From an uncultured Bacteroidales bacterium (GTDB lineage: Bacteria > Bacteroidota > Bacteroidia > Bacteroidales > VadinHA17), in contig CAWJLF010000012.1 of the NCBI GenBank assembly GCA_963843635.1, positions 33,829 through 97,828 of the forward strand: 64,000 bases of DNA, given 5' to 3'. Of this stretch, positions 2,275-34,595 are shown piece after piece. Position 1 is the first letter of the stretch. Every line of letters starts with the position of its first letter. The translations under genes were made by a program, and so were the position numbers. The notes below the pieces were generated by a model. That model was not told the DNA's origin. It saw only the letters and a list, made by a program, of their open reading frames with translations, and searched no databases.

Positions 2275-2320
2275 TTTTAATCCTCCACTTTATTAATAAT
2301 ACTACTTGAGATCCTAATCT

Positions 2321-10621: not shown

Positions 10622-10633
10622 AAAACTTCAACC

Positions 10634-15333: not shown

Positions 15334-16533
15334 TTAATTTGATAAATACATCTGTTCCAGGATATTAGTATTGTATTGTAACACATTGTCAAGATAATCC
15401 AGTTTAATCATTACAGCGTTCTCATAGCTGCTGGTAAACCTGAAAAGATCTATCTCACCGCTCTCAAGACTCTTAAGTGCAGTCCTGAGGATCTCTTCAT
15501 AAAGTAAACTGCCTGTTGAATTAAAATAATCAATGGCCTCCCTGAGTCTTAGTTCTTCCCGCTTGTAAGCGGCTATTTTGTTTTTCAGGGCATTGATCTC
15601 ATACTCGGTCATCAGTTGGCGGGAATCGATAGAGATTCTTGATGATTTGATCCTTGATCTCTGACTACCGAAGAAAAGGGGTACTGCCACACCTACCTGG
15701 AATCCGTTGTAGTACCTCGAGCTTTCATGTTTGTCAGTACCTGTGAAATAGTTCAGTGAAAGATCAGGCAGCATTTTATTCCTCTCAATTTTCAACAAAG
15801 CCTCGGCATAATTATTCTGCAATTTCAACAATTGAACGGCAGGATATGATTCTATGTTCTTCTCATCAGCGACTATCATTTCAATATTGCCTGCTACTGC
15901 AAAATCCTCTTCATAGTTCATGAGTGCCTTCAGTTTCTGAAATGTGGTTTGAATATAGTATCCTGTTCCATCGAGGTTTAATTTAGCCTGGTGCTGACGT
16001 GCTTTTATATTTAGGAGATCGAAGCTGACTGTAATCGCCTTTTGCAAACCTTGATTCAGCATTCCTCAGCAGGTCGGAATAAAGGCTGTCAATACTCCTG
16101 TACATATCCTGCCTGGCCTGAAGTATCTTGAGTGTATAGAAAGAAAGTGAGACATTCTTTTGAAGAGACTGTCTGCGCGTCTCCAGGGCCAGCTCGGCTC
16201 TTGACACATCTATCATTCTCGCATTCCTCTCAGCGAAGTACAGGGTAGGAAAACTCAGGTCCTGTGATATACCCCATATATGTAAAGGATAACCTAACGG
16301 AGTAATATTATTCTGATCATATCCATAACTCAAAACTGTTTTGTCCGGATCGAAGGCAGTCGCCTTGAGAGCAACTATCTCTTTCACTTTCAATGCATAT
16401 GCATTAATCTCTTTGTTATTAGCCAGGGCAATATCCATGATCTCATTAAGAGTCATCTCTTTTTCTGACCATATGATGATAGTGCAGGAAGGAGGATGAA
16501 AAGGAGGATAACGACCGGCTTATACCTGATCAC
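15334..16533 (-). pseudogene. TolC-family outer membrane efflux protein, frameshifted at least twice
   Basis: Fragments 15983..16456 and 15334..16062 overlap in different frames and join at ...AESRFAKG / ITVSFDLLNIKA. Its signal peptide (M/V)IRYKPVVILLFILLPALSSYGQ is encoded from GTG 16533 in the frame of the czcA-like tail and is cut off from MTLNEIMDIA by a 1-nt shift near an AAAAA run. Confidence 0.75.
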
Positions 16534-19500
16534 TCTGAAAGGGAAAAACCTGATCCTCTTCACGTTGTTGAAGATTTCGAAAAGTAAAGGCAAAGCTATC
16601 ATTGTAAGCATAGTTGAAGTGAATAGTCCTCCGATAACAACTGTGGCCAGCGGACGCTGGACCTCTGCTCCTGCACCTGTGGATATCGCCATAGGAAGGA
16701 AACCCATCGCTGCAGCTCCTGCTGTTAACAAAACAGGACGAAGCCTGTCTTTTGTTCCTCTCAGGATTACTTCTCTAATATCCTTAACCCCATCATGTTG
16801 CAGCTCCTTAAGATGTTCAATAAGTACTATACCATTAAGGACAGCAATACCAAACAATGCTATAAAACCTACGCCTGCCGAGACACTGAATGGCATGCCT
16901 CTTATCCATAGGAGTATCACTCCTCCGACAGTTGCCAGGGGAATTGCAGTAAAGATCATAATGGCATCCTTGAATGATTTGAATGCAAAATGGAGGAAGA
17001 TGAATATAAGCAGTAAGGCAACAGGGACTGCTATCATTAGCCTTCGACTGGCGTTCTGAAGATTCTCAAACTGACCACCATAGGAAATATAGTTACCCGA
17101 TTCAAGGGTGACATTATTATTGATTTTTGCCTGTATATCCTTTACCACTGATTGCAGGTCGCGATTCCTTACATTCACACTGACCACAACTCGTCGGTGA
17201 GTGTTTTCCCTGGAAATCTTAGCCGGGCCTTCGGCATACTGTATATCAGCCAGTTCCTCGAGGGGGATCTGTTTCCCATTACTTAGAGGCACATATAATT
17301 GCCTGATATCATTTATATCAGTCCTGTTCTGTTTTTTGAGCCTGGTCACCATGTCAAAACGTTTTTCCCCTTCAAAAACGGTTCCGGCAACCTGTCCTCC
17401 AAATGCTGTTGATAAATATCCGTTCAGGGACTTTATGTCGAGGTCATAATATGCGATCTTCTTCCTGTCGTAGGCTATTCTCACCTGTGGCAGACCTGCG
17501 GTTTTTTCAAGGATAACATCACCGGCCCCGGGAATATCTGAGATTAAATTCTTGATCTCAACTGCCTTTTGCCCTATATAGTCAAGGTCCTCTCCGAATA
17601 TTTTAATGGCAATATCGGCTCTTACTCCGGTTATTAGTTCATTAAAACGCATCTCAATTGGCTGGGTGAATTCATACTCGAGACCAGGCAGAACCGACAA
17701 TGCTTCTTTGAATTTCCCGGCCAGCTCCTCCTTGCTTTTTGCACTTACCCATTCTTTTTTAGGCTTCAGCTTGATGATCATATCGATCTCTTCCATCGAC
17801 ATGGGATCAGTTGGTACCTCAGCTGCTCCTATACGGCTTACTATCTGGTCCACCTCGGGGAATCGGGATATCAGTATATTCTCCATCTCAGTGGTTGTCT
17901 CAACGGTTTTTGTGAGTGAGGTGCCGGTCTTCAGCACGGGCTGGATGACAAAATCTCCTTCATCGAGAGTTGGAACAAATTCACCTCCGATCCTGGTGAA
18001 AAGGAACAGGGTCAGAGCCAGAGAGAACAGAGCGGCGCCAAGAACAGCGCGCTTATGTCCGCAGGACCACCTGATAACCGGTTCATATGACTTATGGACA
18101 ATCTTCATTATCCATGCTGAGATATCGTGTTTTTTCTTTTTCCCTGGTTTCAGAAAAAGAGAAGCTGCCACGGGTAGCCATGTCAGACCAAATATCATTG
18201 CACCAATGAGGGCGAAGGAAAAGGCAATAGCCATAGGATGGAACATTTTTCCTTCCACTCCGCTTAACGAGAGAATGGGTATGAAAACAATCAATATGAT
18301 CACCTGCCCGAAGATGGCTGAATTCATCATTTTCGATGACCCGGAGAAGGAAACGCTATCGAGGAGTGCCTGCTGCTCTTCCCCTGACACGCCGGTTATT
18401 TCATCCTTCTTTATCGTTATCTGCAGCGCTATATACTCTACTATGATGACAGCACCGTCGATGATAATACCGAAATCGAGAGCTCCAAGGCTCATAAGGT
18501 TGGCATCAATACCGAATATATACATCATTGATATGGTAAACAATAATGCCAGAGGTATCATTGAAGCAATAACAATGGCAGACCGGAGGTTGCCCAATAA
18601 TAGAAGTACGATAAAGAATACGATCAGCGCTCCGAGTATAAGGTTTTCTGCTACTGTGGCAGATGTCTCACCTATAAGTTCGCTTCTTTCAAGTATAGGA
18701 TTTATGAATACTCCTTCAGGGAGGTTCTGTTGAATCTCATCCACGCGTTTCTTAACTTCCTTTATAACCTCCTTTGAATTGGCATCCTTCAGCATCATTA
18801 TCTGGCCCAGCACAGTTTCTCCCTTTCCATTGGCAGTGATTGCACCAAAACGGTTTGCATATCCATAATGAACATCTGCAATGTCCCTGATAAATATTGG
18901 AACACCATTATTACCGGATACAACTATATCCTCAATATCGGGCAATGATCTCACCAAGCCGTCACCCCTGATGAAGTAACTCTGGTTTGTCTTTTCAATA
19001 TAAGCGCCTCCAGACACATTATTGTTAGATGATATTGCATTGAAGACATCCAGCAGTGTAAGGTTTACTCCCTTTAGTTTTTTCGGGTCTATTGCTATCT
19101 CATATTGCTTAAGGTAGCCTCCCCAGCTGTTAATCTCCACCACTCCATTTATACCTGACAGACGGCGGCGGACAATCCAGTCCTGTATGGTCCTGAGATC
19201 CATGGGGGTATACCTGTCCTTGTATTCCGGTTTGACATCTATGATATACTGGTATATCTCTCCCAGTCCAGTTGTTATCGGACCCATATTGGGAGTACCG
19301 AAGCCTTCCGGGATGTTGGCTGATGCACTTTTAATCTTTTCCGCTATCAGCTGACGGGGAAGATATGTTCCCATATTATCACTGAAGACAATTGTGACCA
19401 CGGAGAGTCCAAATTTAGAGACGGACCGGATCTCTTTGACACCCGGCAGGTTAGCCATCTCCATCTCAACAGGTGAGGTTATGAACTGTTCTATCTCCTG

Positions 19501-19674
19501 AGTGGACAGGTTGCCTGAGGTAGTGATTACCTGCACCTGGTTATTGGTAATGTCGGGAACTGCGCCTACAGGAATTCTGAAGACAGTATATAGTCCGAAT
19601 GCGGACACAGTAGCAGTAAACAGGATAACGATCAGTTTATTCTTTATACTGAAAGAGAGAATCTTGTTGAGCAT
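16453..19674 (-). CDS. CusA/CzcA-family heavy-metal efflux RND transporter
   Basis: 1,073-aa uninterrupted ORF with 12-TM RND architecture: MLNKILSFSIKNKLIVILF..., ...GALDFGIIIDGAVIIVE..., ...GFIALFGIAVLNGIVLIEH... The last ~25 codons read through the neighbouring gene's signal peptide, so the true 3' end is uncertain. Confidence 0.92.
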   Translation of the reverse strand: MLNKILSFSIKNKLIVILFTATVSAFGLYTVFRIPVGAVPDITNNQVQVITTSGNLSTQEIEQFITSPVEMEMANLPGVKEIRSVSKFGLSVVTIVFSDNMGTYLPRQLIAEKIKSASANIPEGFGTPNMGPITTGLGEIYQYIIDVKPEYKDRYTPMDLRTIQDWIVRRRLSGINGVVEINSWGGYLKQYEIAIDPKKLKGVNLTLLDVFNAISSNNNVSGGAYIEKTNQSYFIRGDGLVRSLPDIEDIVVSGNNGVPIFIRDIADVHYGYANRFGAITANGKGETVLGQIMMLKDANSKEVIKEVKKRVDEIQQNLPEGVFINPILERSELIGETSATVAENLILGALIVFFIVLLLLGNLRSAIVIASMIPLALLFTISMMYIFGIDANLMSLGALDFGIIIDGAVIIVEYIALQITIKKDEITGVSGEEQQALLDSVSFSGSSKMMNSAIFGQVIILIVFIPILSLSGVEGKMFHPMAIAFSFALIGAMIFGLTWLPVAASLFLKPGKKKKHDISAWIMKIVHKSYEPVIRWSCGHKRAVLGAALFSLALTLFLFTRIGGEFVPTLDEGDFVIQPVLKTGTSLTKTVETTTEMENILISRFPEVDQIVSRIGAAEVPTDPMSMEEIDMIIKLKPKKEWVSAKSKEELAGKFKEALSVLPGLEYEFTQPIEMRFNELITGVRADIAIKIFGEDLDYIGQKAVEIKNLISDIPGAGDVILEKTAGLPQVRIAYDRKKIAYYDLDIKSLNGYLSTAFGGQVAGTVFEGEKRFDMVTRLKKQNRTDINDIRQLYVPLSNGKQIPLEELADIQYAEGPAKISRENTHRRVVVSVNVRNRDLQSVVKDIQAKINNNVTLESGNYISYGGQFENLQNASRRLMIAVPVALLLIFIFLHFAFKSFKDAIMIFTAIPLATVGGVILLWIRGMPFSVSAGVGFIALFGIAVLNGIVLIEHLKELQHDGVKDIREVILRGTKDRLRPVLLTAGAAAMGFLPMAISTGAGAEVQRPLATVVIGGLFTSTMLTMIALPLLFEIFNNVKRIRFFPFRVIRYKPVVILLFILLPALSSYGQKKR

Positions 19675-20035: not shown

Positions 20036-21731
20036 ATGAAAAGGAGCTGCTATTTTCTACTGCTATTGTTTTTTCTTCTGTTAACTGACTTAACATCTTT
20101 CGCCCAGGATCTGGCTAATATTAGCAAGCAGGAACCATTCAAGATAAGCGGGACGATAAATACCAAACTACAGTTTTATAACACCAATAAAACCAATCCA
20201 TCTCTTGAGTCCTTTTGTCTGGTATATCCAGGGCAGCCCCGTTGTCTCCCTTTATGGAATAACACTGCCTTTCTCATTCAGGATAAGTGAACAGCAAAGA
20301 GATTTTCGTCAGCCCTTTAACCAGTTCGGGGTCAGCCCCTCCTATAAATGGGCAAAGCTTCATCTTGGATATAAATCATTAAACTGGTCAACCTACGCAC
20401 TTGCCGGCCATTCAATATCAGGTGCCGGCTTTGAGCTGTCACCGGGAAAGTTCCATATTGGCCTTATCACGGGACGTCTGCTGAAGCCAGTAAAATATAT
20501 AGACAATCCCCAGGTACAAATTACACAGACGCCTGCTTATAAACGTAGAGGAACTGCCTTTACCTTCGGCTACGGAACCACGAAAAACAATGTTAACCTG
20601 GTTATACTAAAGGCGAAAGATGATTCTACATCAGCCGGTGATATTCCGATGCAGTACCAGGTTACTCCTGATGAAAACCTGGTTGTTTCCCTTATCTCAA
20701 AACAAGTCATTGCAAAGAATTTTATCTTTGACTTTGAGGTGGCTCAGAGCCTTTATACAAAAAACATGGCGACAAAGCTCTCCGATACAACCGGGGGCTT
20801 TATAGCAAAGGCATTCCCGTTTCTCATGAAGACCCATCTCTCAACCACATCAAGCAATGCTATACAAACAAGCATAGGATATCAATCTGATCTCTTTAAA
20901 CTATTAGTAAAGTACCAGCGTATTGAGCCGGATTTTAAATCCATGGGAGCATATTATTTTCTTACTGATATAAGTAATATTACTGTAGAACCAACTTTTA
21001 AGATGATAAAGAAGAAGCTGACTCTCGGAGGTAGTTTCGGATCACAATATGACAACCTGGGTAATGATAAGAGCCTGAGAACCAGGCGAACCATTACTTC
21101 TGCCCGAATGACTTTCATTCCTGTTCCGCAATACAACCTGAGTGCCACATATTCAAACTATGGTTTGGCACAGGAATCGGGATTGCTTTCGATCGATACC
21201 CTCAGGCAAAGCGAAGTGGCACAGGCAACCAGCCAGTTTGGAATTGTGCAGTCCATTAATCTTAACGGCAAGTCTTTTGCACATAACCTGATGATAAATT
21301 TTAATTCTCAGAAGTTAAATGACAGAAACAAGAATACAGCTCAATACAGCGAATTCTCAACTAATATACTGTCTGCCGGTTATTTCATGAGCTACCTACC
21401 ATGGAATATGAATGCATCAATATCATTTAATTACACGAAGTTCAGACAGGATACTATTACCACACTTGTTACAGGACCTTCACTTGCCCTTGGAAAATCA
21501 TTCCTTAAGAATAAGCTTAATACTTCACTTTCTTATTCAGCAGTGAAGAATAAAGTTCAGGATAAAGAAACTAACAGGATAAGTATCTTAACATTTCAAT
21601 TAGGTTACAAGCCTGCCAAAAATCACAGGCTGTCCCTCAGGTACAACCACCAGGTTAACGAAGGTGTTAATACCACCTATCCATCCTATTTTGAAAACAG
21701 AGTCGATTTTGATTATTTATATACTTTCTGA
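20036..21731 (+). pseudogene. Orphan ~565-aa OM beta-barrel protein, single frameshift near nt 20200-20215
   Basis: Signal peptide MKRSCYFLLLLFFLLLTDLTSFAQ is in ORF 20036..20290; the rest is in ORF 20205..21731. The span of 1,696 nt is not a multiple of 3. Alternating amphipathic strands run throughout, and the C-terminal aromatic beta-signal is ...RVDFDYLYTF. The shift may be an assembly error at the CCTTTT run. Confidence 0.7.
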
Positions 21732-21732
21732 T

Positions 21733-24700
21733 ATGACGACAATCATTACCAAATACAGATATTTCAGACAGTTATGGATGTCTCTGGCATTTCTTTTCCA
21801 GGGACTGTTTGTCCTTTCCCTTAACGGGCAACAGAACCTGGTTATTAATACAATGGTACGGCCACCCTATGCGACAGATATCTATCGTTACCCGGATTTG
21901 ACCAGGGTGATGATCACATCTTCTTTTACCACAAGGGGCACTTTTGTTGTTCATATCAAAGGTGATAACGGTGTTGACCTGCGTACATCCCCGGATTATA
22001 ATCCCTTACCTGTTTCTGTTTCGGCTAATGAGATGAACCAGTATACCGGTATCGACCTTTCAGGATACTTTGATTATACTAATCTTGTCAGTTCAGGTAT
22101 TCCAATTCAAAAACTAATTGATGATGGTCTTCCGGAAGGGAATTACCAGATCTGTTTCAGGATGAAGGATGGATCAGGGACTTTTATCTCATCTGATGAA
22201 CCATTAGGATGTAGTAACTTTTTTACTATTCGATTTGGTGATCCCCCGGTTACCATTAATCCCCAATGCGGAGCTATCCTCAATAAGACAGGCCTTCAGA
22301 GCATTGTCTTTAGCTGGACCCCGGCAACAGGAGCTCCGGCGTGGACTCAGTATAACCTGAAAATCGTGGAGTTGCTCGACTCCACTCAGAATCCGAATGA
22401 TGCAATGCTCACCTCTACACAACCGCCGTTCTTTGAGACATCCGTCCAGAGTGGTTTTTCGTTCTTTTACGGTCCTTCACAGACTCTCCTTCAGAAGGGG
22501 CATTTTTATGCATGGCAGGTTACAGCAGAAGACAGGGAATCGAGGACTAAATTTTCAAATAATGGCAGGAGCGAGGTTTGCTGGTTTAAGTGGGATCCAA
22601 AGGAGATGCCTGTATTCCACGTCGTTACACAAAGCGAGACAGTGAAAAAGAATGAACCCAAGATCAGTACTGTCACCAATGTTGATCCTGTTCCAATAGC
22701 AGTAGTAAGCGGGAACCTCAATTATAAATTCAAGGGATCAAGCTCCAGCGGTACTTTTTCACAGTCATCACAGCAGTTTGGCCCTGCCCAGCAATCAATC
22801 ACTCAGATGGGCGATGGCCTGGTATATAATCATGATAATATTTCGACTGCCGGTTCAAAACCACTGGCTAACGTAAAAGTCAGCCTGGTTATGACGTATG
22901 TATTGAAGGGAATGGTCAATAACAAGAGTTATGACGGGTCAGCTATAGACATGAGTGATATCAGGACAGAAGGAATTTTCATGCAGTCATATCCCGATCA
23001 GGAAAAGATACTTGCCACAACTACTACAGGCCCGGATGGCAGTTTCACTTTTCAGTTCATGGATACTGAACAGAAACTGGGTCTTGTTGATGCCAATGCT
23101 GACTGGAAATCAAACGGGGGAGAGTTTTTCGATCATGTAACCGGTAAACTGTATAAGGTGATAAGGCTGAAGGTAGACAATATGTACTATTGCAGCCCCG
23201 ATATCAATATTAAAGTAACTCCATGGCAATCCCTCGACCTTGGTACTGTGATATCATATGTAAAGAGTTATAACCTGAAGGTTCATACGCAATGGACTAA
23301 CTCGAAGTTCTATGAAACCAAATCCGGACAGGGTACTGCACTGGAAAAAGTCAAGACAACAATCTTCCGCAAATCTTTTGCAGGTAACGTACCACGTGAT
23401 GAAGGTGGCTATTCAATACCAAACGGGCAGTTGCAGGTGAGCATCCTGCCGAAACTTCTTAAAACAGACTATTCCAAAAGTGACGGGAATGTTATATTCA
23501 CAAACCTGGTACAGCATAATCCGGATAATAGCCAGGACAGGTACTACCTGGTTTGTGAACCGGATATGATCAATGGACCTTACATCTTTAAAAAGAGAGA
23601 AAGGGCCTATTACCCGATTTACTTTAAAGACAAGAAAGATTTTCCTTTCAATAGTATGAGATACGAAGATACCAATTCCAATCTGCCCCCTACTTCGGAA
23701 CAGGCTTATGGTGAGAATATAACATGGAACAGTCAGTTGCAGGTCAGGACCTATGAAATGACCATGGAATTATACCCTCAACGGCCGAGGATAATAGGGA
23801 AGGTTGATGTAGAGAATGTAAACGCCAAACCTATGAGTAATATTACTCTATTGCTGCTAAGTAACTATGATAGTACTTCTGTTAACAATGTCCTTGTTCG
23901 TACTGCCAAAACCGATTCAAAGGGTTTTTATGAATTTGATAATCTCGATATGGAGCTAGGTAAATTCAATACGGAAGGCCCAACTCCGGTGAATGGTCCT
24001 GACCGTACATTATTCTGCACTCCATCCGGCTTCAAAGGACAGGCTGAGCACCTTGGGACACTCATCTGGGGTCAGCAGGAAGAAAAGAATTTCCATCTTG
24101 TGCCGGACGGCTTGTTCACAGGCTATGTTGTAGATGACAAGGGTAAGGCTGTTGCCGCCGATATACAGGTAGATGATCTTGCTTTTGCTTCAACAACAAT
24201 GCAGTTTGAATACAACAACCAGGCCGGAGGAGGAAGCAACACCGGGAATACAGGGAATATCGGCAATAATGCTCAGGTGAGTACTGTTCAAATGAATAAT
24301 GTGCAGGCTACTAATGTTCAGTCTAATAACATAGGAGTGAGCAATAATAGTACAATGCAGGTTGCAGGAGCCAGTGCCTCCCAGGTAAACATGCCGACTG
24401 ATGTGAAGCAGGTCTTCTCCATACATGCTCCCTCAGGAAAGGGACGTCAACTTAAGATCATTCCCAAAGATCCGGGTTATACTTCGGAGACATATACAGT
24501 CGACATACCTAAAGAAATAAATAATGCAGCTGGCCAGCCATTGAAACCGTATGTGGTGTACCGTATGAAAAAAAGGGTTCGTTTTATGGTTGCCGAAAGA
24601 CCGGCTGCTAAAATTTACCTTATCAGCAGTCTCAAACCGGTGCCAATGGCAGAGGTCACTCTTAAGGTACCCGGAGGGGATATTACAAAGACAGCCGATA

Positions 24701-27633
24701 TGAGAGGTACAGTGGTCTTTGAATTTGAAAACAATGGTACCTCCTTCGATTTCGATATAAAAGCACCTGATGATGCTGACCTGAAAGATACTCCCTATCA
24801 TCTTAATAATGTGAAGGATAGTAAGACAACGATCGTATATCCACCTGCCTTGCTTGATAAAGCAACAAAGATTACAGGAAAGGTGACTCTGGGGGATAAC
24901 AAAGTTGCCCTTAAGGATGCAACTGTTTATGTTGAGCAGGGTAACGGAGAACGCATTGAGACAAAGACAGATGATAATGGCAATTATACTCTCCATAAAG
25001 TGCCGGTTGACCCGTCAAATATAACCGTATGGGCAACCAAACCAAACTCAGTGCCCAATATTGTTAGCCAGTCAAAACAACTGACTTTGCAAAAAATGAA
25101 CAAACTTGATTTTACCCTTCAGGTTGATAATGAAATTGCCATTGAGAATATTTTTGGCTTTGAAGTAGATATACAAAAGAAAGAAAAACAATCAGATGGA
25201 ACCTATCTATTGACAGGTGCCCTCATTAACCTTCCGGACAATCCTAACTTCAAAATGGCTGATGACGGACTGACTATCCCGTTTGCAGATATGAAGATCA
25301 AGAAAAGCGGCAAGTTCACCACCGGGGGTATTCCGTTAGGGGTTCCCGCTAATGCTGAGTTTGAGACGGATATCACTAATCTTCAACTTGTACTTAATGA
25401 TGTGTTTGGGGTGCTTCAGACTCCTTCAACTGGGTCAAGGCTAAAGGTAAGTTCTGATAACAATAAGGGCCAGATAAAAGGCAAGGCAGGAATAATGAAG
25501 ACCTCTTTCCAGTATTCAGGTAGTTATATCACCTTCCAGGCCGATGAACCATTATACTTGTCACCCCAACCGGGCAGCACCCAGAAAGACGTGATTACTC
25601 TTACGGTTAATGATTATCCTGCCAGGAAATGGGGAATTACTGGTCCGGGAGGTAACGATGTGCAGTTCAAATTCCTCGATTTCAATGCAAAAGGGAGTAA
25701 GACAAGCTCATGGCTTGAAGGCAACAAGATTGGTATATCTACGGTTTTGACTACTAATACTATAACGGGTATTGTACCTTCAATACTCTCCGTTGATATA
25801 GGCGAACTCGTACTGAAACCTACTAACATAGATCCTTTGACGGGAAATAAACCACTGTCTTTCAAACTTGAGAAATGGGATTTCCAGAGCACAGGCTGGA
25901 ATATTGAACAGACCAAAAAAGGTATTTACATTCCGCAGGGAACAATTAAGACGGGTATAATTGATGTACCAGTCAAAAAAGTGGTGATAACCCCCGACAA
26001 TTTTGCAGTGGGGGAGAGTGACGTACATGATCTAACGTTCTCCAGTGTGATCCCTCTAAACATACTTACCCCAAACACATCGTTTGGATATAACCCGGCT
26101 ATAGGATCAGACAGGAAAGGGCATTGGGAGCTCAGGATAATAGGAACACAGGGATCCCCGGGTGTGTCGATTACCGGTCTGCCGGGAATGGAACCAGGAG
26201 CTGCGATAAAATTCCAGTCCTTCTCACTGCTGAGTAATGGTGAACAGGAAATTGACCAGGGCAACCAGACCCAGGAGGTCACATTTTATAAGTTGCTTAA
26301 GGTTCAGCCTCTGTCTTTCTATGGTGGCGATAAATATTTCCTGATGTCATGTAACATCGATCTGGATATTCCAAGGATCAAGTCAAAAAGCGCTATGATC
26401 AAATTCTCAAAACCCGCCTCACAGGTTAACTTTGAGTTGATGCCTTTTAATGTGAGCTTTGACGGGCCCGGTGGTATCACATTTATTTCTGGACTTACAC
26501 AGGGTGATCAGAAACTCGATGCGACAGGCTTCACGGCCACCGGTACGATAAAAGACAGTGAGGGGATCAACCTTAAAGGAAAGTTGCACAGGACTGTAAA
26601 TGCAGCATGGCTGGAAGTTGATCCTAAAGGACAGAAGATGCCTCTGGGAGCAGGTCAGACCTACCTGGCAGGCATTGAAGGGAAGATGGAAGTTGTGCCG
26701 AATATAAGCGACTGGAATAATTTCAGCTTCAGTGGTGATATGACAGGATTCAAAGGCATGGAGTCAGATCTCCATAAGACTTTTACTGTCCATGGCAGCA
26801 TAACAGCCGACAATGAGGGTCTGGGTGTTAAGAATATCCCAACCCCATTCGGGGGAATGTCAATAACATATGATATTCAGAATGCACGTCTTACGGGTTA
26901 TCTCGACGTGGATAAGCAGGTTGGTGCCATGAGAATGAAAGGAGCTGCCAACATGCTGGTTGATGCTTCAGGCTGGTATTTCCTCCTCGGAGGTCAGCTG
27001 ACAGCCCCAGGGATAGGTAATATGCAGGCGGGTATGCTTCTCGGTGATTATCACCAGATGGCGCCTGATGTGGTTCAGACCCTGATGCAGTTCGCATATG
27101 ACAAGAGCGTCCCTGCCAGCTTCAAAACAGGGATATCAGGCTTCTTCTTTACAGGACAGAAAGATGTTCCGATAATCAACATACCCGATTTTGAGATAAA
27201 CATCGGGATTCTCGATGCCAAACTGGGCCTGTCTGCAGGACTGGATGGCCGGCTATGGATGGGATTTGACGACAGTGGTAACGAGTACGGTATTGGAGCA
27301 ATGGCTTATGCACATGCCTGGTTCAGCGCCTCATCTATTACCTGTACAAAACTAAGTGCTGAGGCCAGGGCTGAATTGGGAGCCAAAGGCATCTACCAGT
27401 CAAACACTGGAACATTTTCAATTACCGGTTGTGGCAGCTTTACTATCAGTGGCTCAGCCAGTCAGTGTTTCCCAACTCCTTGCTGGGATGGAATATGTTG
27501 CAAGGCATGTATCGGTGGAGGTGTCAGCGAAGGCATAAAGGTAGATATGACTTTTGATTCCAATGGAAATACAAGTCTTGATTTTGGCTTTGGGAACTGC
27601 AGTGGTCAGTCAACAATGTCTGGCAACTGGTAA
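21733..27633 (+). CDS. 1,966-aa secreted giant protein with multiple carboxypeptidase-regulatory-like beta-sandwich modules and a Cys-rich tail
   Basis: ATG lies 1 nt after the barrel stop codon. Signal peptide ...WMSLAFLFQGLFVLSLNGQQ. Module signatures: TTGPDGSFTFQF, TDSKGFYEFDNL, VVDDKGKAV, TADMRGTVVFEF, TDDNGNYTLHKV. An N/Q-rich spacer lies at nt 24208..24393 and 9 Cys fall in the last ~100 aa. No catalytic motif was recognised. Confidence 0.85.
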   Translation: MTTIITKYRYFRQLWMSLAFLFQGLFVLSLNGQQNLVINTMVRPPYATDIYRYPDLTRVMITSSFTTRGTFVVHIKGDNGVDLRTSPDYNPLPVSVSANEMNQYTGIDLSGYFDYTNLVSSGIPIQKLIDDGLPEGNYQICFRMKDGSGTFISSDEPLGCSNFFTIRFGDPPVTINPQCGAILNKTGLQSIVFSWTPATGAPAWTQYNLKIVELLDSTQNPNDAMLTSTQPPFFETSVQSGFSFFYGPSQTLLQKGHFYAWQVTAEDRESRTKFSNNGRSEVCWFKWDPKEMPVFHVVTQSETVKKNEPKISTVTNVDPVPIAVVSGNLNYKFKGSSSSGTFSQSSQQFGPAQQSITQMGDGLVYNHDNISTAGSKPLANVKVSLVMTYVLKGMVNNKSYDGSAIDMSDIRTEGIFMQSYPDQEKILATTTTGPDGSFTFQFMDTEQKLGLVDANADWKSNGGEFFDHVTGKLYKVIRLKVDNMYYCSPDINIKVTPWQSLDLGTVISYVKSYNLKVHTQWTNSKFYETKSGQGTALEKVKTTIFRKSFAGNVPRDEGGYSIPNGQLQVSILPKLLKTDYSKSDGNVIFTNLVQHNPDNSQDRYYLVCEPDMINGPYIFKKRERAYYPIYFKDKKDFPFNSMRYEDTNSNLPPTSEQAYGENITWNSQLQVRTYEMTMELYPQRPRIIGKVDVENVNAKPMSNITLLLLSNYDSTSVNNVLVRTAKTDSKGFYEFDNLDMELGKFNTEGPTPVNGPDRTLFCTPSGFKGQAEHLGTLIWGQQEEKNFHLVPDGLFTGYVVDDKGKAVAADIQVDDLAFASTTMQFEYNNQAGGGSNTGNTGNIGNNAQVSTVQMNNVQATNVQSNNIGVSNNSTMQVAGASASQVNMPTDVKQVFSIHAPSGKGRQLKIIPKDPGYTSETYTVDIPKEINNAAGQPLKPYVVYRMKKRVRFMVAERPAAKIYLISSLKPVPMAEVTLKVPGGDITKTADMRGTVVFEFENNGTSFDFDIKAPDDADLKDTPYHLNNVKDSKTTIVYPPALLDKATKITGKVTLGDNKVALKDATVYVEQGNGERIETKTDDNGNYTLHKVPVDPSNITVWATKPNSVPNIVSQSKQLTLQKMNKLDFTLQVDNEIAIENIFGFEVDIQKKEKQSDGTYLLTGALINLPDNPNFKMADDGLTIPFADMKIKKSGKFTTGGIPLGVPANAEFETDITNLQLVLNDVFGVLQTPSTGSRLKVSSDNNKGQIKGKAGIMKTSFQYSGSYITFQADEPLYLSPQPGSTQKDVITLTVNDYPARKWGITGPGGNDVQFKFLDFNAKGSKTSSWLEGNKIGISTVLTTNTITGIVPSILSVDIGELVLKPTNIDPLTGNKPLSFKLEKWDFQSTGWNIEQTKKGIYIPQGTIKTGIIDVPVKKVVITPDNFAVGESDVHDLTFSSVIPLNILTPNTSFGYNPAIGSDRKGHWELRIIGTQGSPGVSITGLPGMEPGAAIKFQSFSLLSNGEQEIDQGNQTQEVTFYKLLKVQPLSFYGGDKYFLMSCNIDLDIPRIKSKSAMIKFSKPASQVNFELMPFNVSFDGPGGITFISGLTQGDQKLDATGFTATGTIKDSEGINLKGKLHRTVNAAWLEVDPKGQKMPLGAGQTYLAGIEGKMEVVPNISDWNNFSFSGDMTGFKGMESDLHKTFTVHGSITADNEGLGVKNIPTPFGGMSITYDIQNARLTGYLDVDKQVGAMRMKGAANMLVDASGWYFLLGGQLTAPGIGNMQAGMLLGDYHQMAPDVVQTLMQFAYDKSVPASFKTGISGFFFTGQKDVPIINIPDFEINIGILDAKLGLSAGLDGRLWMGFDDSGNEYGIGAMAYAHAWFSASSITCTKLSAEARAELGAKGIYQSNTGTFSITGCGSFTISGSASQCFPTPCWDGICCKACIGGGVSEGIKVDMTFDSNGNTSLDFGFGNCSGQSTMSGNW

Positions 27634-27660
27634 TATTATTGAAAAGAAAAACCAAGTAAT

Positions 27661-29652
27661 ATGCAAAGGATATCATTTTATCGTCTAATAGTATCAGTCC
27701 TCTTATTCTCATTAGCAGCTCCATTTGCCGGAGCCCAGGAAAACAGGCCGACAGCAGTGGGGACCAGGAACGGTATCTGGATCTACCTGGGTAATGAGAT
27801 CCCCAGGGGCTTCCGGTATGAGATATTAAGGAAGACTGGCAGAGCAAACTACACCGTGATTGGGACCGCCACCTATCCGGAAGATGAAAAGGAGATGAAG
27901 GCTATAGTTTCACAATACAGTCCATACTTCGGAGACCTTGAAAAGTTCGGCGACAAAGAAGTCACTGGATTAAGAAATTATGCGGGGAAGCATAAAACAT
28001 CGGACTCAATTACCATGCCTGACTTACCCGTGATGCACCTGGCACTTGGAACAGCTTATTTTGACACTGATGTGCAGCCTGGTACTGATTATCAATACAG
28101 TGTGCGAAAGATTACCGGGAAAGATACACGTGCCTGGGAGAGAGAGAGTAATACCGCTTCATTTCCGCCTGTGACAGATATCATGAGACCGGTATTCAGC
28201 AACAAGGAAGAGTCGCGCTCGCAGATACTGATACGCTGGTATGTTCCTGAACAGAAAATGCTTAATACATTTGCTGTATACAGAGGAGTTTTCGGGAAGG
28301 GAGATTTTAAGAAAATTGATGCAATAAAAGGATATAATTCATCCCGGGACACTGTGTTTCTCATAGCTATTGATACCAATGTAACCGTACCGGCATTTTA
28401 CCAGTATTACCTGCTTCCCCTTGATATTTACGGCAACAGCGGTCCCGGATCTGATACTGTGGGGGCCGGTACTTTGGGACATGCATATAACCCGGTTCCT
28501 GATTATTTGAAGGCAAGGGGCAGGGATAAAGACCACCAGGTTGAGATAAGCTGGAGTTTCCGGGACAAGAAATATCTTCGTGGGATAGAAGTTTTCAGGA
28601 GCTCGTCATTCGACGGCAGATATGACAGGATAGCCCTTCTCCCGGCAGGCGATACAACCTATACAGATGTTGTTCCTGTTGCAAACGAGAATTACTGGTA
28701 CTACCTGGTAATTGACGGACCGGTTTCCAAAAGTCTTCCCACTGCAAGAGTATCTGTTATGTTCAGGGCTCCCGGAGAGAAACCTTCTCCCCCGGACGAG
28801 ACAGGCGCTGAAAGTGTCAGTGGAGGAGTTAAAGTATACTGGAGCTATCACGATCCTTATGTGAAAGGGTTTTATGTTTACAGGTATGTCTACGAGAAAT
28901 CTGATTATATACAGGTTTCCTCGCTCATCCCTGCAGGGGGCGAGATATTCAGCTATATTGATTCAGTTGGACAGGGACAGGGGAGTGGTGTGCTGCGTTA
29001 TGCTGTACGGGCAGTGAATGACCTGGACCAGATGAGTGATCTTTCTTCACCTGCAAGTGCCAATCCGGGAGTCAGGTCCGCTGTCGGGGTCCCCTTAAAT
29101 CCAAGAATAAACAGATCCGGTAATGGTATAATGTTAATATGGGACGACCTGCGCAACAGTGAAAAGTCGTTAATGGGATATAAGGTTTACAGGAAAAGTA
29201 CGGCGGGAAAGAATTTTGTTATGATGCCTAACGACACACTCAGGAATGATAAAAATTATTTCAGCGATACCACTGTCGTCCAGGGGATGAGCTATCAATA
29301 TGCTGTAACAGCAATAGATTATTACGGGAATGAGAGTCCGATGAGTAACTTAATCTCGTACAGCATGCCGGCCGAATATATCATTCCTCCGGTCATTTCA
29401 GGAGCTGTGGGAACTACAGGAGGTATTATGATCAGTTGGGGACAGGTGAATGACGAAAGCGTTGTCTCTGTCAGGGTGTACCGGATACAGCCAGGCGGAA
29501 AAGCAACAGCCTTGGCAACATTATCAAAAGATGAAAACCAGTATCTGGATAATACAGCAAGGAAGGGAGAACTCTATATTTATGAGATATCTCTTCTTAC
29601 AGGTGACAACAGGGAGTCGGTCAGAAGCAGAGGTGTCAGTATACGATACTGA
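27661..29652 (+). CDS. Secreted protein built of six fibronectin-type-III-like modules
   Basis: Signal peptide MQRISFYRLIVSVLLFSLAAPFAGAQ. Six repeats each end in an FN3 G-strand-like motif: YQYSVRKI, YQYYLLPLDIYGNSG, YWYYLVIDG, LRYAVRAVNDLDQMS, YQYAVTAIDYYGNES, YIYEISLLTGDNRES. It starts 27 nt after the giant gene. Confidence 0.85.
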   Translation: MQRISFYRLIVSVLLFSLAAPFAGAQENRPTAVGTRNGIWIYLGNEIPRGFRYEILRKTGRANYTVIGTATYPEDEKEMKAIVSQYSPYFGDLEKFGDKEVTGLRNYAGKHKTSDSITMPDLPVMHLALGTAYFDTDVQPGTDYQYSVRKITGKDTRAWERESNTASFPPVTDIMRPVFSNKEESRSQILIRWYVPEQKMLNTFAVYRGVFGKGDFKKIDAIKGYNSSRDTVFLIAIDTNVTVPAFYQYYLLPLDIYGNSGPGSDTVGAGTLGHAYNPVPDYLKARGRDKDHQVEISWSFRDKKYLRGIEVFRSSSFDGRYDRIALLPAGDTTYTDVVPVANENYWYYLVIDGPVSKSLPTARVSVMFRAPGEKPSPPDETGAESVSGGVKVYWSYHDPYVKGFYVYRYVYEKSDYIQVSSLIPAGGEIFSYIDSVGQGQGSGVLRYAVRAVNDLDQMSDLSSPASANPGVRSAVGVPLNPRINRSGNGIMLIWDDLRNSEKSLMGYKVYRKSTAGKNFVMMPNDTLRNDKNYFSDTTVVQGMSYQYAVTAIDYYGNESPMSNLISYSMPAEYIIPPVISGAVGTTGGIMISWGQVNDESVVSVRVYRIQPGGKATALATLSKDENQYLDNTARKGELYIYEISLLTGDNRESVRSRGVSIRY

Positions 29653-29656
29653 CAGA

Positions 29657-30967
29657 TCATTTCATGAGTTTACTTATTATAAAGTTACCTAATTCCCTGC
29701 CTTTCAGTACACTGGTATCAGCAGTAAACCTGTAATGAATACCTCCGTAAACCCTGCTGATGGATACTTCAGCAGCTGCATCCTCAAATGAACTGAAATG
29801 TCGTTGCATACCTATATACCTGAGGTCTGCAGTATCCTGGAATGCAAAATTCTGTCCGAAAATGGAAGTAAGCAAACTGGCTGCACTGGCTGAGATTGTA
29901 CTGTGTGCACTTGTATATTCCGGGAATGAGGGTGTTTGTAATAGTGGCATCCAGTTGGGATCAAAGGACTCATTGATAGCCGTTACAGGACGAATATAAC
30001 TGCTTCGGTATTTCTCATCCCATGATGAAATGAAAGCATCATATAACGCAATGGAAGTGTAGGCATATGCTATGGCTGTTTTCACTTCATCAGCGCCGGC
30101 CATTCTTGAGGCTATTGCACATATACCCATCCAATGGCCACCAGGTGTTATTTTTTTGTTGCCGAACATCATGTGTCCCACGTGTTCCACAACAAAAGGA
30201 TTATCGTCCCAGTAACGTGCTATATCAATTTGTTCCCCTGTAAGATGCTTATTGATTGTATAAACATTGAGCAATTCCTTATAATAGAGACTATTGGTGT
30301 CCATACTGAATTGCAGGGGGCTCGCAGGGTTTAAACTGCGAGGCGGAATCCATAATCATTGGCATCATGGTGTTCCAGCACCATTCAATACCATCCAGAT
30401 AGTCAGGGGGAGTGGGCCGCCATTTTCCCGGTATCATTACTTCCCAGGTATTTCTCTTTTCCCCTTGACTGTAAATAACCGTCCATATAAGCTCTGCGCA
30501 AAACGGTACTCCCCACACTGTCACCAAAATCAACGATCGCTCGTAGGTTGCATCATCCAGAAGGTTCCTGAACCTGTTATAAACAGATTGTTCATAATGA
30601 GTCAGGGAATCCACCGAAAATACCTTCACATTGCGGACCACTTTAAAAAAAGCTTTGCTGGCAGCAAGGGTGAAATTATAATTTTTGCTGTTTCAGGACT
30701 GGCATAGGATCAAAGCCATGTCAGCCTGGTGGTTATTGACTGATAGCCTTCTCGTTAAACTAATAGCCTCATAGGTGGCCAGCGATGCATATACATATAG
30801 CCTGCTTGCCACAGGTGGTGTAAAGACATCATAGATAATTACCTGTGTAAGCTTATCCTGGTTGTTATGCAATGATCTCAGCATCCGATATCTGCATTGA
30901 CCACCTCTCTTTTGCAGCCGATGACTGACAGTACCAGGATAAGGACCAGACTGTTTTGGTAAGGCAT
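29657..30967 (-). pseudogene. PAP2-superfamily / vanadium-haloperoxidase-like lipoprotein, multiply frameshifted
   Basis: Lipobox start MPYQNSLVLILVLSVIGC (ATG 30967). Fragments 30693..30884 (TPPVASRLYVYASLATYEAI), 30291..30641 and 29657..30304 (PEYTSAHSTISASAA...SRVYGGIHYRF) are colinear but lie in different frames. Confidence 0.75.
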
Positions 30968-31051
30968 TTTATATATTCAGAAGAATGATTTTAATATGTA
31001 TTTTCTTTTATTCATTTCGTTTTTTTCAGGTTTCCCTGAGCATAAAATTTT

Positions 31052-34000
31052 CAGTGGCCCTCTGTTTGTGCGCTGCAGCCACCAGGAGCTTCCTCCGACC
31101 CCTTAAGTGGCAATGCCTTTGCCATTACCGGGGATAATATGCCACTTTCATCAATGACAGCGGGCTGAAATTGCCATGCCCGTCACCCAGCATCAGCAGT
31201 CCGTTTAAGGCATCATATCTGCCTGTAAGACCTCGGTGCCAAAATCATTGGTGTTTGCAAGAACATCGCGTTGCCATCGTCATTGAAATCGCCTGTGCAA
31301 CCAACCTCCAGAGGTGGAGAGTTGAGCCTTTAGGTGGCAAGGGAATTAGGGTAAATGGTTATTGCCGTCATTTCTGCAAAAGGATGACCTGAAATCAGTG
31401 GCTTTAAGCACCTGTGCTTTTTCCATCTGTTCAGGGGAAAAAAGTTGGTCGATGGTGGCGTTGCGAATGATTTGTAATTCTGAAATTTAGATCTCATCCC
31501 TATCATCTCTTTGACAATATCATCTCTTCCCTGCGCAGGAAAATTGCTCATATAGTATCCTGTTGACTGGCGATCATATAAAGGGCAGGAAAGGCATCAT
31601 AACTTCCATTATTGTCAAAGTCGCCCGGCATAACAGAGACCGGGTATTCTTCACTGGCCCTGTAATATGAATTTAGGCCAAGGTTACCCACTACAAAATC
31701 CATATCTCCGTCATTGTCAAAATCCGCAGCTACAACAGTAGTCCACCAGCCCTTATGACCCGCTAAACCTGTCTGATCCGTTATGTTCCTGAATTTACCA
31801 TTCTCATTGAGCAGGAAGGTGACTGGTGTCCATTCGCCTGCAATAATAAGATCAGGCAGCCTGTCATTATTAATATCTGCGAACAAGGCATCACTTACCA
31901 TACCAAAATTGATAAGATCAGGTGCAATTTCTTTTGTAACATCAGTAAACTTTATTTTGCCGTTTTTTGTGTCATTCCTGTAAATGAAGCTGGAAACAGG
32001 CTTTGGATAATTCCATGGAAATACCCTGCCCGAGATAAAGAGATCAGGATCTCCGTCCCTGTCATAATCCGCAACTCTCACACTCCCTTTGCTTGTAAAG
32101 TCTATGGGAATGGCTGAGGAGTCTTCTGTAAAATACCTTTTCCATCGTTTTGATAAAAATGATCCCTGTAGGCTTCCGAATATGGTTCATTCTCATAGCC
32201 ACCTGATGAAATATAAAGATCCTGGTCACCGTCTCCATCTGCATCAAATAGCTGGATGCCGGTATCATCCCATGTCTTGGATTGTAAGATCTCATCACTC
32301 AGGAGAGGCTTATGAGTGAAGGTCCCGTCTTTTTTCTGTAAGAAGATAGTGGCGCTTGTATGAGAAGAGCCACCCGTAATAAGATCTTCAAGGCCGTTAC
32401 CATCAATATCACCGGCAGCAATTGAGGGACCGGATTCAGAAAACTTATGAGGCAACAGTTTTTGTATATTGAAATCAACAAAATCTTTCTCCTTATCTAT
32501 ATATTGCAACCTTAACAGGTTCTGTAACATCCATGAACAGGCTTTTCCTGATTGCCGGTTTCACAGGTTTGTTAAGAAAGCTTCTGCGCATCATCTGTTT
32601 TCACATTCAAAACCTGGTCGGCATTGATATTCTGAAGTATTTCTGATGTCCCGTTTTGCCATCTGACTATCATCGAATCTACCCTGGTGGATTTTCCGAG
32701 TACCGAAATGAGCTATTCCTCCAACTGTTGACAGGTAACCGCGTGCAGGTGCATTTTCCCACAATTGCTGCTTGCCATCATCATAATAAATCTCGATCAA
32801 GGCACCCAGCCCACTGATATTAAGTGAGTCCCCATGCAGGATAACTTCAAGGAAATGACCTGTTTCCGGGTTTGTTCCCTCTCATTGTTCCTGTATACCT
32901 GGGCTTCATCATTGATATTGTTTATTACGAGATCGAGGTCACCGTCATTATCGAGATCGCCATAGGCTGCCCCGTTTGAGAATGTCGGAGATGAGAATCC
33001 CCATGTCCCGGACATATCAGTAAAGGCCATATTCCCATTATTCCTGAATATGTAATTATGGAGTTTTACCTCCGGCACCTGCTTAAGGATATCAGATTTA
33101 GAAGCGGTCTGCAATGCATTCATCCTGAACATTCCAAAGTCGTGATCGGTAATATCCCGTGGAAAGCCGTTTGCAATAAACAGATCCTTATAGCCATCAT
33201 TATCAAAGTCGGCAAGCAGGGGAGCCCAGCTCCAGTCAGTGGCTTCAATGCCGGCATAAAAGGCTATTTCGCAGAACACAGGTGTGCCTGTTGAATCCTT
33301 AGGTCCCTCATTTATCTGAAGCGTGTTGCGTGTATACTGATATCCGTACCCGTAACGTTCGGTATTCTGATAGAACTGGTAGCTTGCCGGAATGAGCATC
33401 ATCTTTTTCCTGAAGTTATCTTCAGGGTTCATGTCAAGCGTTATGAAGTCGTCAGTCCGTCATTGTTAATATCGCCGACATCATTTCCCATAGCGCTGTT
33501 GGAAGTATGCTTGAAACATGGAAGTAATCTGCTCAGAAAAGGTGCCGTCTTTATTATTGATCCACAGCAGGTCATTAGAGAGGTAATCATTGCTGACATA
33601 GATATCTTTCCATCCGTCGCTATTTATGTCGGTGATACTGGCCTGGTTACCATATCCTTCTGTCATTATGCCTGCTTCTTCGGAGACATCGGTGAAAACA
33701 GGGTGATGTAGGATAGTGTCCCATTCGTTGCGGTACAGCTTCCCCTGCTGGAATTGGAGCCATCACGGGTCAGATGGTGAAAAATATAGGGTGAATTCCT
33801 GTCATTTATCTCGTTAACAGTGAGATAGACATCTAAATCACCATCATTATCATAGTCGAAGAAAGCAGCCTGTGTTGTATGGGAATCATCGTCGAGACCA
33901 TATTCCGCTGCCATATCGTTAAATACCGGTATGTTCACTGCTGTTATTACCCTGATTAATATACAGGATGTTTTTTCTCTTTTCAGGGTCGCTTGCTAAT

Positions 34001-34414
34001 GGTGGCTGAGATATAGATATCGAGAAGTCCATCATTATTGATGTCAATAAGCGATACTCCCCGGCACCATTTTCCTTCACCCCCGCACCAGCCATATCTG
34101 TTACATCTTCAAAGCGTGAAATCACCCTTGTTGAGATATAGTCTGCAGGGGACCATGTTCCCTGTAAAGAAGATATCAGCCAGTCCGTCATTGTTAAAAT
34201 CGCCTATTCCAACGCCACCTCCATTGAAGATATTACCATTGTCAAGCTGGTTAACAGAGTCATTTTCAATGATCCTGTTAACAAAATGAATCCCTGAATG
34301 GGATGAACTGATCTGTTGAAAATGAGAATTTTCACTGTTGCATGAAAAAATTAAAAACAGGATAATCGCTGGGACAAGTATTCTTACAGGTTTAAATGAT
34401 AATGAACTGAACAT
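31052..34414 (-). pseudogene. ~1,100-aa VCBS/FG-GAP repeat protein with ASPIC/UnbV domains (CRTAC1-like), heavily frameshifted
   Basis: At least 9 colinear fragments. N-terminus: MFSSLSFKPV...GIGDFNNDGLADIFFTGN. Repeated D.DxDGDxD calcium-loop motifs (FDYDNDGDLDVY, DFDNDGYKDLF, DLDNDGDLDLV, DADGDGDQDLY, DYDRDGDPDLF, DFDNDGDMDF). ASPIC-like ARGYLSTVGGIAHFG. Confidence 0.8.
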
Positions 34415-34595
34415 AAATCGTGTAATGAGTTAGGTTATCCCTTTTGACAGGTAGTAATTAAATATTCAAACAACAACAAACCCTGTTGGTTCATTGCCCG
34501 ATTGTTAAAATTTAACCTGATAAGAAATTGTAATTGGTCTTTCCTGGCAGGTTTTCCTGCTGCCGTTCCTGCCGTGATAATAAATTTAGCGGGAA

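Follow-up and report, generated by a model that had tools for sequence, protein, structure and literature searches.

To our knowledge, the secretion system of type IX (T9SS) and lipoprotein export are considered to account for almost all surface proteins of the Bacteroidota. T9SS cargo of type B needs an adjacent cognate barrel of the PorP/SprF type, in two-partner secretion an Omp85/ShlB-type barrel of 16 strands with POTRA domains is paired with an exoprotein that carries a TPS domain, MtrB encloses a protein like a sheath, and usher pores pass folded Ig-like pilins. TANFOR proteins were defined bioinformatically as polymorphic toxins, and their export by T9SS was speculated (Jana, Salomon and Bosis 2020, PMC7073777). 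Here we describe a locus encoding a predicted outer-membrane β-barrel, a TANFOR-like giant protein of 1,966 aa and a partner protein of FN3-like modules, which is located in 64,000 nt of DNA of an uncultured Bacteroidales bacterium of the VadinHA17 lineage (assembly GCA_963843635.1, contig CAWJLF010000012.1, positions 33,829 to 97,828). This whole stretch is referred to as the window, and coordinates given without a locus name are positions in it.

New here is an unannotated family of barrels that is strictly coupled, and occasionally fused, with TANFOR giants. The barrel is genetically locked to these giants in several orders of the Bacteroidota as well as in two candidate phyla close to them, and the module is also present in Tannerella forsythia, a periodontal pathogen. 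The barrel is the best current candidate for bringing TANFOR proteins to the cell surface or keeping them there, and a concrete, testable candidate for an export step for which previously only T9SS was speculated. If the barrel were the exporter or anchor, it would represent a new kind of barrel-dependent surface display in the Bacteroidota. An upstream barrel is not mentioned in the TANFOR paper (PMC7073777), in which genes encoding FN3, SprB, and T9SS C-terminal domain (CTD) proteins were found to be enriched near TANFOR genes; due to the lack of an annotated domain, the barrel could not surface in this domain-enrichment test. No later work on the TANFOR class was reported in the full-text literature searched, where a vesicle proteome (see below) was the sole relevant paper beside that of 2020, and a colony-spreading paper (PMC9950754) considered as related work proved to be unrelated.

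Layout of the locus

All three genes are located on the forward strand in close succession. The barrel gene (20036..21731) is represented by two open reading frames (ORFs; 20036-20290 and 20205-21731), which are split by a frameshift, the giant gene (21733..27633) begins with an ATG situated 1 nt past the barrel stop codon, and the gene of the 663-aa FN3 partner (27661..29652) follows after a gap of 27 nt. The co-directional order and both spacings given in a preliminary description of this DNA are reproduced by the ORF coordinates, as is the signal peptide assigned there to each product. In the translations, all three N-termini comprise a basic n-region, a hydrophobic core and a cleavage site of the A/G-x-A/G type, and the N-terminus of the giant reads MTTIITKYRYFRQLWMSLAFLFQGLFVLSLNG/QQ, a Sec signal peptide. 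A lipobox is present in none of the three translations.

Relationship of the giant to TANFOR proteins

The signal peptide of the giant is followed by a TANFOR-like N-terminal domain (21835..22242, approximately aa 35-170, forward strand) with the motif GLPEGNYQIC...PLGCSNFF and a conserved Cys pair, and by an FN3/Ig-like domain (22243..22602, approximately aa 171-290, forward strand) with weak matches to fn3 and Ig_Rha78A_N. Against TIGR02542, the giant gives a weak match over approximately 50 aa (22.9 bits, E 6e-5), which is below the curated cut-off of 67 bits; the criterion applied in the TANFOR paper was an RPS-BLAST E-value below 1e-7 over at least 90 aa (PMC7073777). Its full-length homologs, which range from 73% down to 24% identity and of which several carry the name 'TANFOR domain-containing protein' in UniRef or JGI, reach 26.6-63.9 bits (E down to 1e-17). 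Considering the score below the cut-off together with the better-scoring full-length homologs and the shared three-gene arrangement (see below), the window giant is, by sequence, a divergent relative of the TANFOR-domain proteins (TIGR02542) and not a member at the level of the model. With this relation to the TANFOR superfamily, the giant is not an orphan. Relatives occur in the Bacteroidales, Cytophagales, Flavobacteriales, Sphingobacteriales, and Chitinophagales, including Chitinophagaceae, Saprospiraceae, and Flavivirga.

The first 300 residues of the giant, i.e., the TANFOR-like and the FN3-like domain, are the only region that aligns to giants of every subclass, with the Cys-rich tail doing so weakly. 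In case of P0067, P0073, P0092, and WP_052449025.1 of T. forsythia, with lengths of 2,600-3,100 aa, 4-8 tandem TANFOR modules are present and the same C-terminal module is kept.

The window giant resembles the published class (PMC7073777) in its Sec signal, the order of a TANFOR-like and an FN3-like domain, the large size, the largely Bacteroidota-bound occurrence and the presence of FN3 genes nearby, but differs from it in the score (22.9 vs 67 bits), in a conserved β module of 830 aa, and in the lack of a variable toxin and of an immunity gene. None of the characters that define a polymorphic toxin was found: no toxin family is recognized, the C-terminus is the best-conserved part, and the next gene, 27 nt further on, encodes the FN3 protein. 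The subclass of the window giant is accordingly predicted to carry a conserved, non-toxin C-terminus in place of the polymorphic toxin end.

Conservation of the three-gene module

When 185,579 species genomes were scanned for the barrel profile, at least 562 loci were revealed, of which 79 were retained and supplemented by two further loci. In all of these 81 loci, the giant gene is located directly 3' of the barrel gene on the same strand, either overlapping or separated by less than approximately 30 nt. The FN3 gene follows the giant in 64 of the 81 loci, the others being contigs that end early or loci with fragmented ORFs. Approached from the opposite side, three distant giants of 24-25% identity (P0109, P0114, and P0119) are preceded by a domain-less gene of 561-570 aa and followed by an fn3 gene of 653-661 aa. 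Including these, the barrel-giant pair was observed in 84 out of 84 loci and the FN3 gene in 67. The grouping of the three genes into one unit, as proposed earlier from the window alone, thus extends over the Bacteroidota, and judged by this gene order barrel, giant and FN3 gene are a real three-gene module of the phylum.

The trio was found in Bacteroidales/Rikenellaceae, Cyclobacteriaceae, Flammeovirgaceae, Saccharicrinis, Flavobacterium, Pedobacter, Mucilaginibacter, Saprospiraceae, and Chitinophagaceae, and also in metagenome-assembled genomes (MAGs) of Latescibacteria and Krumholzibacteriota. Its distribution is patchy, with sometimes more than one copy per genome. In case of the Flavobacterium loci, barrel and FN3 gene are kept next to a shorter giant of approximately 1,513 aa, which has only aa 4-300 in common with the window giant; in the Cys-rich tail, there is a weak, co-linear similarity (hmmsearch E 2e-4 to 7e-3 for 4 out of 5 sequences, hhalign probability 53%).

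The same arrangement can be read from Supplemental Data 1 of the TANFOR paper (PMC7073777). The founding TANFOR protein of T. forsythia (3,078 aa) has a domain-less protein of 548 aa upstream and a signal-peptide protein of 665 aa among its downstream genes, the TANFOR protein of Mucilaginibacter (2,152 aa) is flanked by a 572-aa protein upstream and a 668-aa FN3 protein downstream, and TANFOR genes of Olivibacter, Dyadobacter, and F. terrae show this layout as well. In T. forsythia, a small restriction-endonuclease-like gene is situated between the giant gene and the downstream signal-peptide protein, which occupies the position of the FN3 partner. The T. forsythia giant was detected in a vesicle proteome (PMC10682907).

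The other neighbours of the trio vary. Two-component regulators recur in the form of sensor kinases of the Y_Y_Y/Reg_prop type together with LytTR or GerE response regulators, which are located at L082:422-3068, L083:2128-5978, L084:802-3129, L019:9023-9820, and L036:4197-6248, and an AraC regulator at L001, which hints at a signal-controlled expression of the module. The nearest regulators in the window, a sigma-54 activator and a kinase (9257-11998), are 8 kb off and located beyond an efflux operon. In 19 loci of Pedobacter and Mucilaginibacter, the barrel gene is immediately preceded, on its own strand, by a gene for a collagen-triple-helix-repeat protein of approximately 600 aa (e.g., L055:8114-9937). 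Pedobacter frigiditerrae RP-1-13 contains at least two apparent TANFOR giant loci, L048 on contig 8, at which the barrel was checked, and the published gene on contig 5; two such loci in a single genome would fit cognate barrel-giant pairs.

Fusions of TANFOR head and barrel

Among the 150 best-scoring barrel clusters, two are longer than the others, namely P0343 (949 aa) and P0390 (978 aa). Both comprise, in a single chain, a signal peptide, a TANFOR-like and FN3-like head and a complete barrel. Residues 131-275 of the P0390 head align to residues 133-289 of the window giant (E 1e-10), and its barrel part, aa 445-978, aligns to aa 27-564 of P0122, an intact ortholog of the window barrel (E 5e-75). 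The P0390 gene (L085:10001-12937) stands alone on two contigs, where it adjoins pheT, zapA, and the RNase Y gene, and neither a giant nor an FN3 gene is present beside it on these contigs. Since the order of head and barrel is opposite to the gene order of the operon, a read-through artefact does not explain the fusion. The two fusions are the strongest evidence, at the level of sequence, that the TANFOR head and the barrel may act on each other.

The barrel family

With the frameshift repaired, the window barrel comprises approximately 564 aa, equal to its orthologs, and ends with DFDYLYTF. For the 508-aa barrel ORF, 1,102 homologs were found in a set of 5.8 billion proteins, nearly all of them 555-585 aa long, all annotated as 'hypothetical' and none with a Pfam domain. 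With a profile built from 48 members, 3,029 clusters at 50% identity were detected in a library of 1.84 billion proteins, 1,566 of them at E<=1e-30. The Pfam scan of these 48 homologs at E<=0.05 gave chance-level matches only, with no PorP/SprF, Usher, Autotransporter or Omp85-type family among them; furthermore, no NCBIfam match was obtained, and the barrel profile has no sequence relative in the PDB.

AlphaFold2 models P0122, which is 86% identical to the window barrel, as an all-β barrel of approximately 24-26 strands (pLDDT 79.7, pTM 0.66) with no plug, no POTRA and no periplasmic domain. In a Foldseek search of the PDB, this model matched outer-membrane barrels only, all at approximately 10% identity, with MtrB as the top match (E 1.9e-9, TMq 0.52), followed by SlpA, the FimD/PapC usher pores (FimD TMq 0.36-0.43), and the barrels of TonB-dependent transporters. 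The product of the first gene is thus predicted to be a large, plug-less outer-membrane barrel of an unannotated family, and model and fold search agree with its first characterization as a strand-rich protein of approximately 565 aa with the DFDYLYTF end and without POTRA or plug. The most invariant residues of the family (Q92, P93, N95, G98, P101, Y103, and W105, as well as S302, G304, Y306, and F308) sit in loops of low pLDDT in the P0122 model, as is expected for partner-binding surfaces.

Stalk and C-terminal module of the giant and the FN3 partner

Behind the head, the giant continues with a stalk of β-sandwich modules (22720..25119, forward strand) of the prealbumin/CarboxypepD_reg and Big_5 type, assigned by Pfam and weak matches. 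Only CarboxypepD_reg at aa 1047-1129 (38 bits) and Big_5 at aa 858-940 (26 bits) pass the Pfam cut-offs. SdrD_B, NOMO, and TTR signals as well as two further prealbumin-like signals and one FN3-like domain are weak in the Pfam and NCBIfam scans, in which ten sub-fragments of the giant were included, and the sole match of the giant profile in the PDB is a NOMO Ig-like repeat. At least five carboxypeptidase-regulatory-like signatures had been counted from the sequence; one of them is confirmed by a model, and the count of five is not verified by hidden Markov models (HMMs). A lineage-specific N/Q-rich spacer (24211-24402, approximately aa 827-890, forward strand), already noticed in the preliminary description, interrupts the stalk.

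The stalk is followed by a conserved all-β C-terminal module (25129..27630, aa 1133-1966, forward strand; AlphaFold2 pLDDT 85.9), which is present at 61 of the 81 loci. These 834 residues are the best-conserved part of the giant, with 78% identity to the nearest homolog compared to 73% overall. The last approximately 250 aa (from approximately 26836) consist of amphipathic hairpins with strands of 12-24 residues, of which one face is hydrophobic and the other charged. The tail described at first as containing nine Cys has eight within its last 96 residues (27343-27600), five of them nearly invariant, and the ninth is located at residue 1540.

In Foldseek searches of the PDB and BFVD, the C-terminal model matched LptD best (E 1e-8, TM 0.11), followed by ApoB100, MTP, and phage fibres. 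Due to TM values of 0.05-0.14 and an rmsd above 40 Å for the PDB matches, these were rejected as evidence of fold or function; neither a pore-forming toxin nor a TamB structure is among the top 50 matches. Pfam and NCBIfam scans at E<=0.1 gave no match to the T9SS CTD of type A (TIGR04183/PF18962) or type B (TIGR04131) on the giant or the FN3 protein, and none to SprB, TamB/AsmA, TPS (haemagg_act), or a catalytic or toxin family on the giant. With these scans, the giant remains without catalytic motif, lipobox and T9SS CTD, as it was described before. That the C-terminal hairpins form a BAM-dependent barrel of their own was considered and rejected, since a low-confidence tail of 13 residues follows the last strand and the C-terminal residue varies between family members (W, Y, P, D or N).

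The FN3 partner consists of a signal peptide and six FN3-like modules of approximately 100 aa each, which are recognizable by periodic motifs, i.e., a B-strand Trp at positions 189, 294, 390, 490, and 589 and an F-strand Y-x-Y at positions 144, 247, 346, 445, 545, and 639. The number of modules is thus the same as counted at first, with the Pfam fn3 match being sub-threshold (22.4 bits). A lipobox, a transmembrane segment or a CTD was not found in this protein.

Comparison with other secretion and surface systems

Two-partner secretion and contact-dependent inhibition (CDI) systems (TpsB-TpsA, CdiB-CdiA) are similar to the locus in that a barrel gene immediately precedes that of a giant, Sec-dependent exoprotein, the conserved N-terminus of the giant co-occurs with the barrel, and related N-terminal domains are fused to toxins elsewhere. 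In contrast to these systems, the window barrel has approximately 24-26 strands, no POTRA domain and no relation to Omp85, a haemagg_act domain is absent, the stalk is built from Ig-like sandwiches and not from a β-helix, and an FN3 gene is present as a third, obligatory component. In Pfam/NCBIfam, there was no match to Bac_surface_Ag, ShlB, POTRA or haemagg_act. Classical autotransporters (type Va) share with P0390 and P0343 the order of signal peptide, soluble head and C-terminal barrel, but their β-domain has 12 strands and approximately 280 aa compared to approximately 530 aa of the barrel in question, which has no Autotransporter match in Pfam; in the window, the parts are moreover encoded by separate genes.

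MtrB and the FimD/PapC pores come closest in structure to the barrel model and are of equal size class; their lumen accommodates MtrA or lets folded Ig-like subunits through, respectively. They differ from it by the identity of only approximately 10% and by the absence of the usher plug and of the N- and C-terminal usher domains from the window barrel, and neither cytochromes nor a chaperone gene accompany the locus; Pfam gave no Usher (PF00577) or PapD match. SprB and SprF of the type-B T9SS provide the example of a giant Bacteroidota surface protein that has a genetic partner in an outer-membrane barrel of its own, but the window giant has neither a CTD nor SprB repeats, and its barrel does not belong to PorP/SprF and is about twice the size. 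No AsmA, AsmA_2 or TamB match was found, the signal peptide is cleavable and the top Foldseek TM values of the C-terminal model are at most 0.14. Likewise, there is no Plug, TonB_dep_Rec or SusD match and no lipobox as in Sus-like systems. The statement that the locus fits neither T9SS-CTD cargo with PorP/SprF nor TamAB or Sus-like systems is therefore supported by HMM and fold searches.

Possible function of the module

Considering conserved gene order, fusions and barrel model, we give roughly even chances to a scheme in which the dedicated barrel exports and/or anchors the giant via the TANFOR head, similar to autotransporters or two-partner systems but not homologous to them. All three products would enter the periplasm by Sec, where the barrel would be the dedicated partner of the giant and the TANFOR head the element that recognizes it. 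The giant would be passed through and/or held by the barrel, and a long fibre would be displayed on the surface of the cell or of vesicles. A lumen of usher or MtrB size would be wide enough for folded, disulfide-bonded Ig-like domains. The system would then represent an autotransporter or two-partner scheme split over three genes, with a barrel unrelated to those of Omp85 and the autotransporters.

Several observations weigh against export or anchoring by the barrel. More than 95% of the genomes that encode TANFOR proteins carry a T9SS (PMC7073777), and according to the table of the same paper the surroundings of the toxin-bearing TANFOR genes in Tenacibaculum, Cellulophaga, Pedobacter, and others are different, with no adjacent barrel. 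The 4-8 tandem TANFOR copies of some relatives are more easily reconciled with a module for binding or a stalk than with one secretion signal. In the fusions, the head could lie in the periplasm or plug the lumen, as in TonB-dependent transporters, and not be an exported passenger. Synteny and fusion indicate coupling and not a mechanism or topology; that the proteins touch, in which direction transport proceeds, that the giant is exposed on the surface and what the FN3 protein does are what we infer. The FN3 protein would be an accessory component, acting either in the periplasm as an escort or adaptor or as another component of the surface, which is a guess.

It is tempting to extend export or anchoring by the barrel to a T9SS-independent route of the Bacteroidota/FCB group, in which plug-less barrels of approximately 26 strands recognize TANFOR heads, pass or hold folded, disulfide-bonded giants of Ig-like domains and may also handle orphan toxins with a TANFOR tag whose genes are located elsewhere in the same genome. 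This wider proposal is tentative, and we rate it as rather doubtful; if true, it would answer the question how the TANFOR toxin class leaves the cell.

As an alternative, the giant could be T9SS cargo that leaves through SprA/Sov by a non-canonical signal and is passed on to its cognate barrel afterwards, with the barrel acting solely as a surface anchor comparable to PorP/SprF. The frequency of T9SS in TANFOR-encoding genomes, the enrichment of SprB and CTD genes nearby (PMC7073777), the CTD proteins encoded near some of our loci (L001, L083, and L085) and the conserved C-tail of the giant, which is weakly common to the Flavobacterium subclass, are all in agreement with this. The dependence of type-B cargo on an adjacent cognate PorP/SprF barrel counts for it as well. 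However, neither a type A nor a type B CTD was matched at E<=0.1, the 48 barrel members have no PorP/SprF or other Pfam match and, with 564 aa and approximately 26 strands, the barrel is far larger than PorP/SprF. Moreover, MAGs of Latescibacteria and Krumholzibacteriota contain the trio as well, and the P0390 fusion marks the N-terminus and not the C-terminus of the giant as the barrel-linked part. Transport by T9SS thus appears unlikely.

A function of the giant as an antibacterial or anti-eukaryotic toxin, of which the disulfide-locked amphipathic hairpins at the C-terminus insert into target membranes after release or presentation by the barrel, is less probable still. It would be in line with the definition of the TANFOR class as polymorphic toxins, with C-terminal strands of 18-24 residues that have one strongly hydrophobic and one charged face, and with the restriction-endonuclease-like gene between the T. 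forsythia giant and the downstream signal-peptide protein. The C-terminus is, however, the most conserved and not a polymorphic part (78% vs 73%), no toxin domain was found by the scans and no pore-forming toxin among the top 50 Foldseek matches, and the gap of 27 nt between giant and FN3 gene holds no small immunity-like gene. An LptD/TamB-like device that spans the envelope or handles lipids, with a C-terminal groove or sheet acting together with the barrel in outer-membrane biogenesis or integrity, is highly improbable, since the top C-terminal matches to LptD (E 1e-8), ApoB100, and MTP, which are amphipathic β-sheet lipid binders, and a barrel of LptD/MtrB size are opposed by TM values of 0.08-0.14 with rmsd above 40 Å, i.e., no real fold match, by the lack of an AsmA, TamB or LptD HMM match, by a cleavable signal peptide without inner-membrane anchor, by an Ig-like stalk of approximately 1,000 aa with a low-complexity spacer that is too long for the periplasm, and by a patchy distribution with sometimes more than one copy per genome, unlike that of essential biogenesis factors.

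Frameshifts and strain variation

The frameshift of the barrel gene is caused by a one-base insertion (20203..20210, forward strand; ...CCA TCT CTT G AGT CCT...), which was located by alignment of orthologs, with the extra base at 20205 in ...CCATCTCTTGAGTCC...; orthologs read NPSLSPFVWY at this site. Contigs of four independent metagenome runs from salt marsh and soil, which are otherwise at least 99% identical, all lack the extra base. Due to its absence from 4 out of 4 runs, the shift is regarded as private to this sequence, where it arose by erroneous assembly or by a mutation of very recent date. The operon had been described as intact apart from one shift in the barrel gene, which holds in so far as a single extra base is responsible, but this base is private to the assembly.

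Giant and FN3 gene together (7.85 kb) show zero indels in comparison to the four metagenome runs, and many of the strain differences in them are spaced by 3 nt, as in synonymous variation. Further downstream (29.9-35.6 kb), indels were observed at no fewer than 37 places, together with approximately 1-7% substitutions in each contig. The downstream excess of indels is therefore real and specific to this region, but the earlier argument that the operon is maintained next to decayed genes is weak, because the barrel shift and, on thinner evidence, at least one neighbouring shift are private to the assembly. Better evidence for a maintenance of the trio is given by the lack of indels, the substitutions spaced by 3 nt and the conservation across phyla, all of which suggest that the reading frames are preserved. 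A uniformly noisy assembly of the whole window was considered and rejected, as the zero indels of giant and FN3 gene show that assembly noise is not uniform, though isolated private 1-nt indels occur.

Genomic surroundings in the window

Downstream of the trio, the region 29657-36920 contains gene fragments only, among them PAP2/VCPO, three FG-GAP pieces and an M28 peptidase gene split at 34596-36920. At the corresponding position, the close relative L081 carries Nramp, M16, and an intact M28 peptidase of 743 aa. The region in the window represents either real decay or a poorly assembled, strain-mixed part. A search for expression data retrieved no RNA-seq run that covers the locus.

Upstream of the barrel gene, an RND efflux operon encodes an HlyD-type membrane fusion protein (14206-15327), a TolC-like factor in two ORFs (15334-16456), and AcrB (16453-19674). 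At positions 16022, which splits the TolC-like gene, and 16459, the one covering metagenome contig differs by 1 nt and otherwise matches at 99% or more, which suggests a private indel or an assembly error at both sites. At the upstream end of the window, a Fic-domain protein and a tyrosine integrase are encoded side by side (715-3951) in the part of lowest GC content (0.32-0.35 compared to approximately 0.42 around the operon), which may represent the edge of a mobile element.

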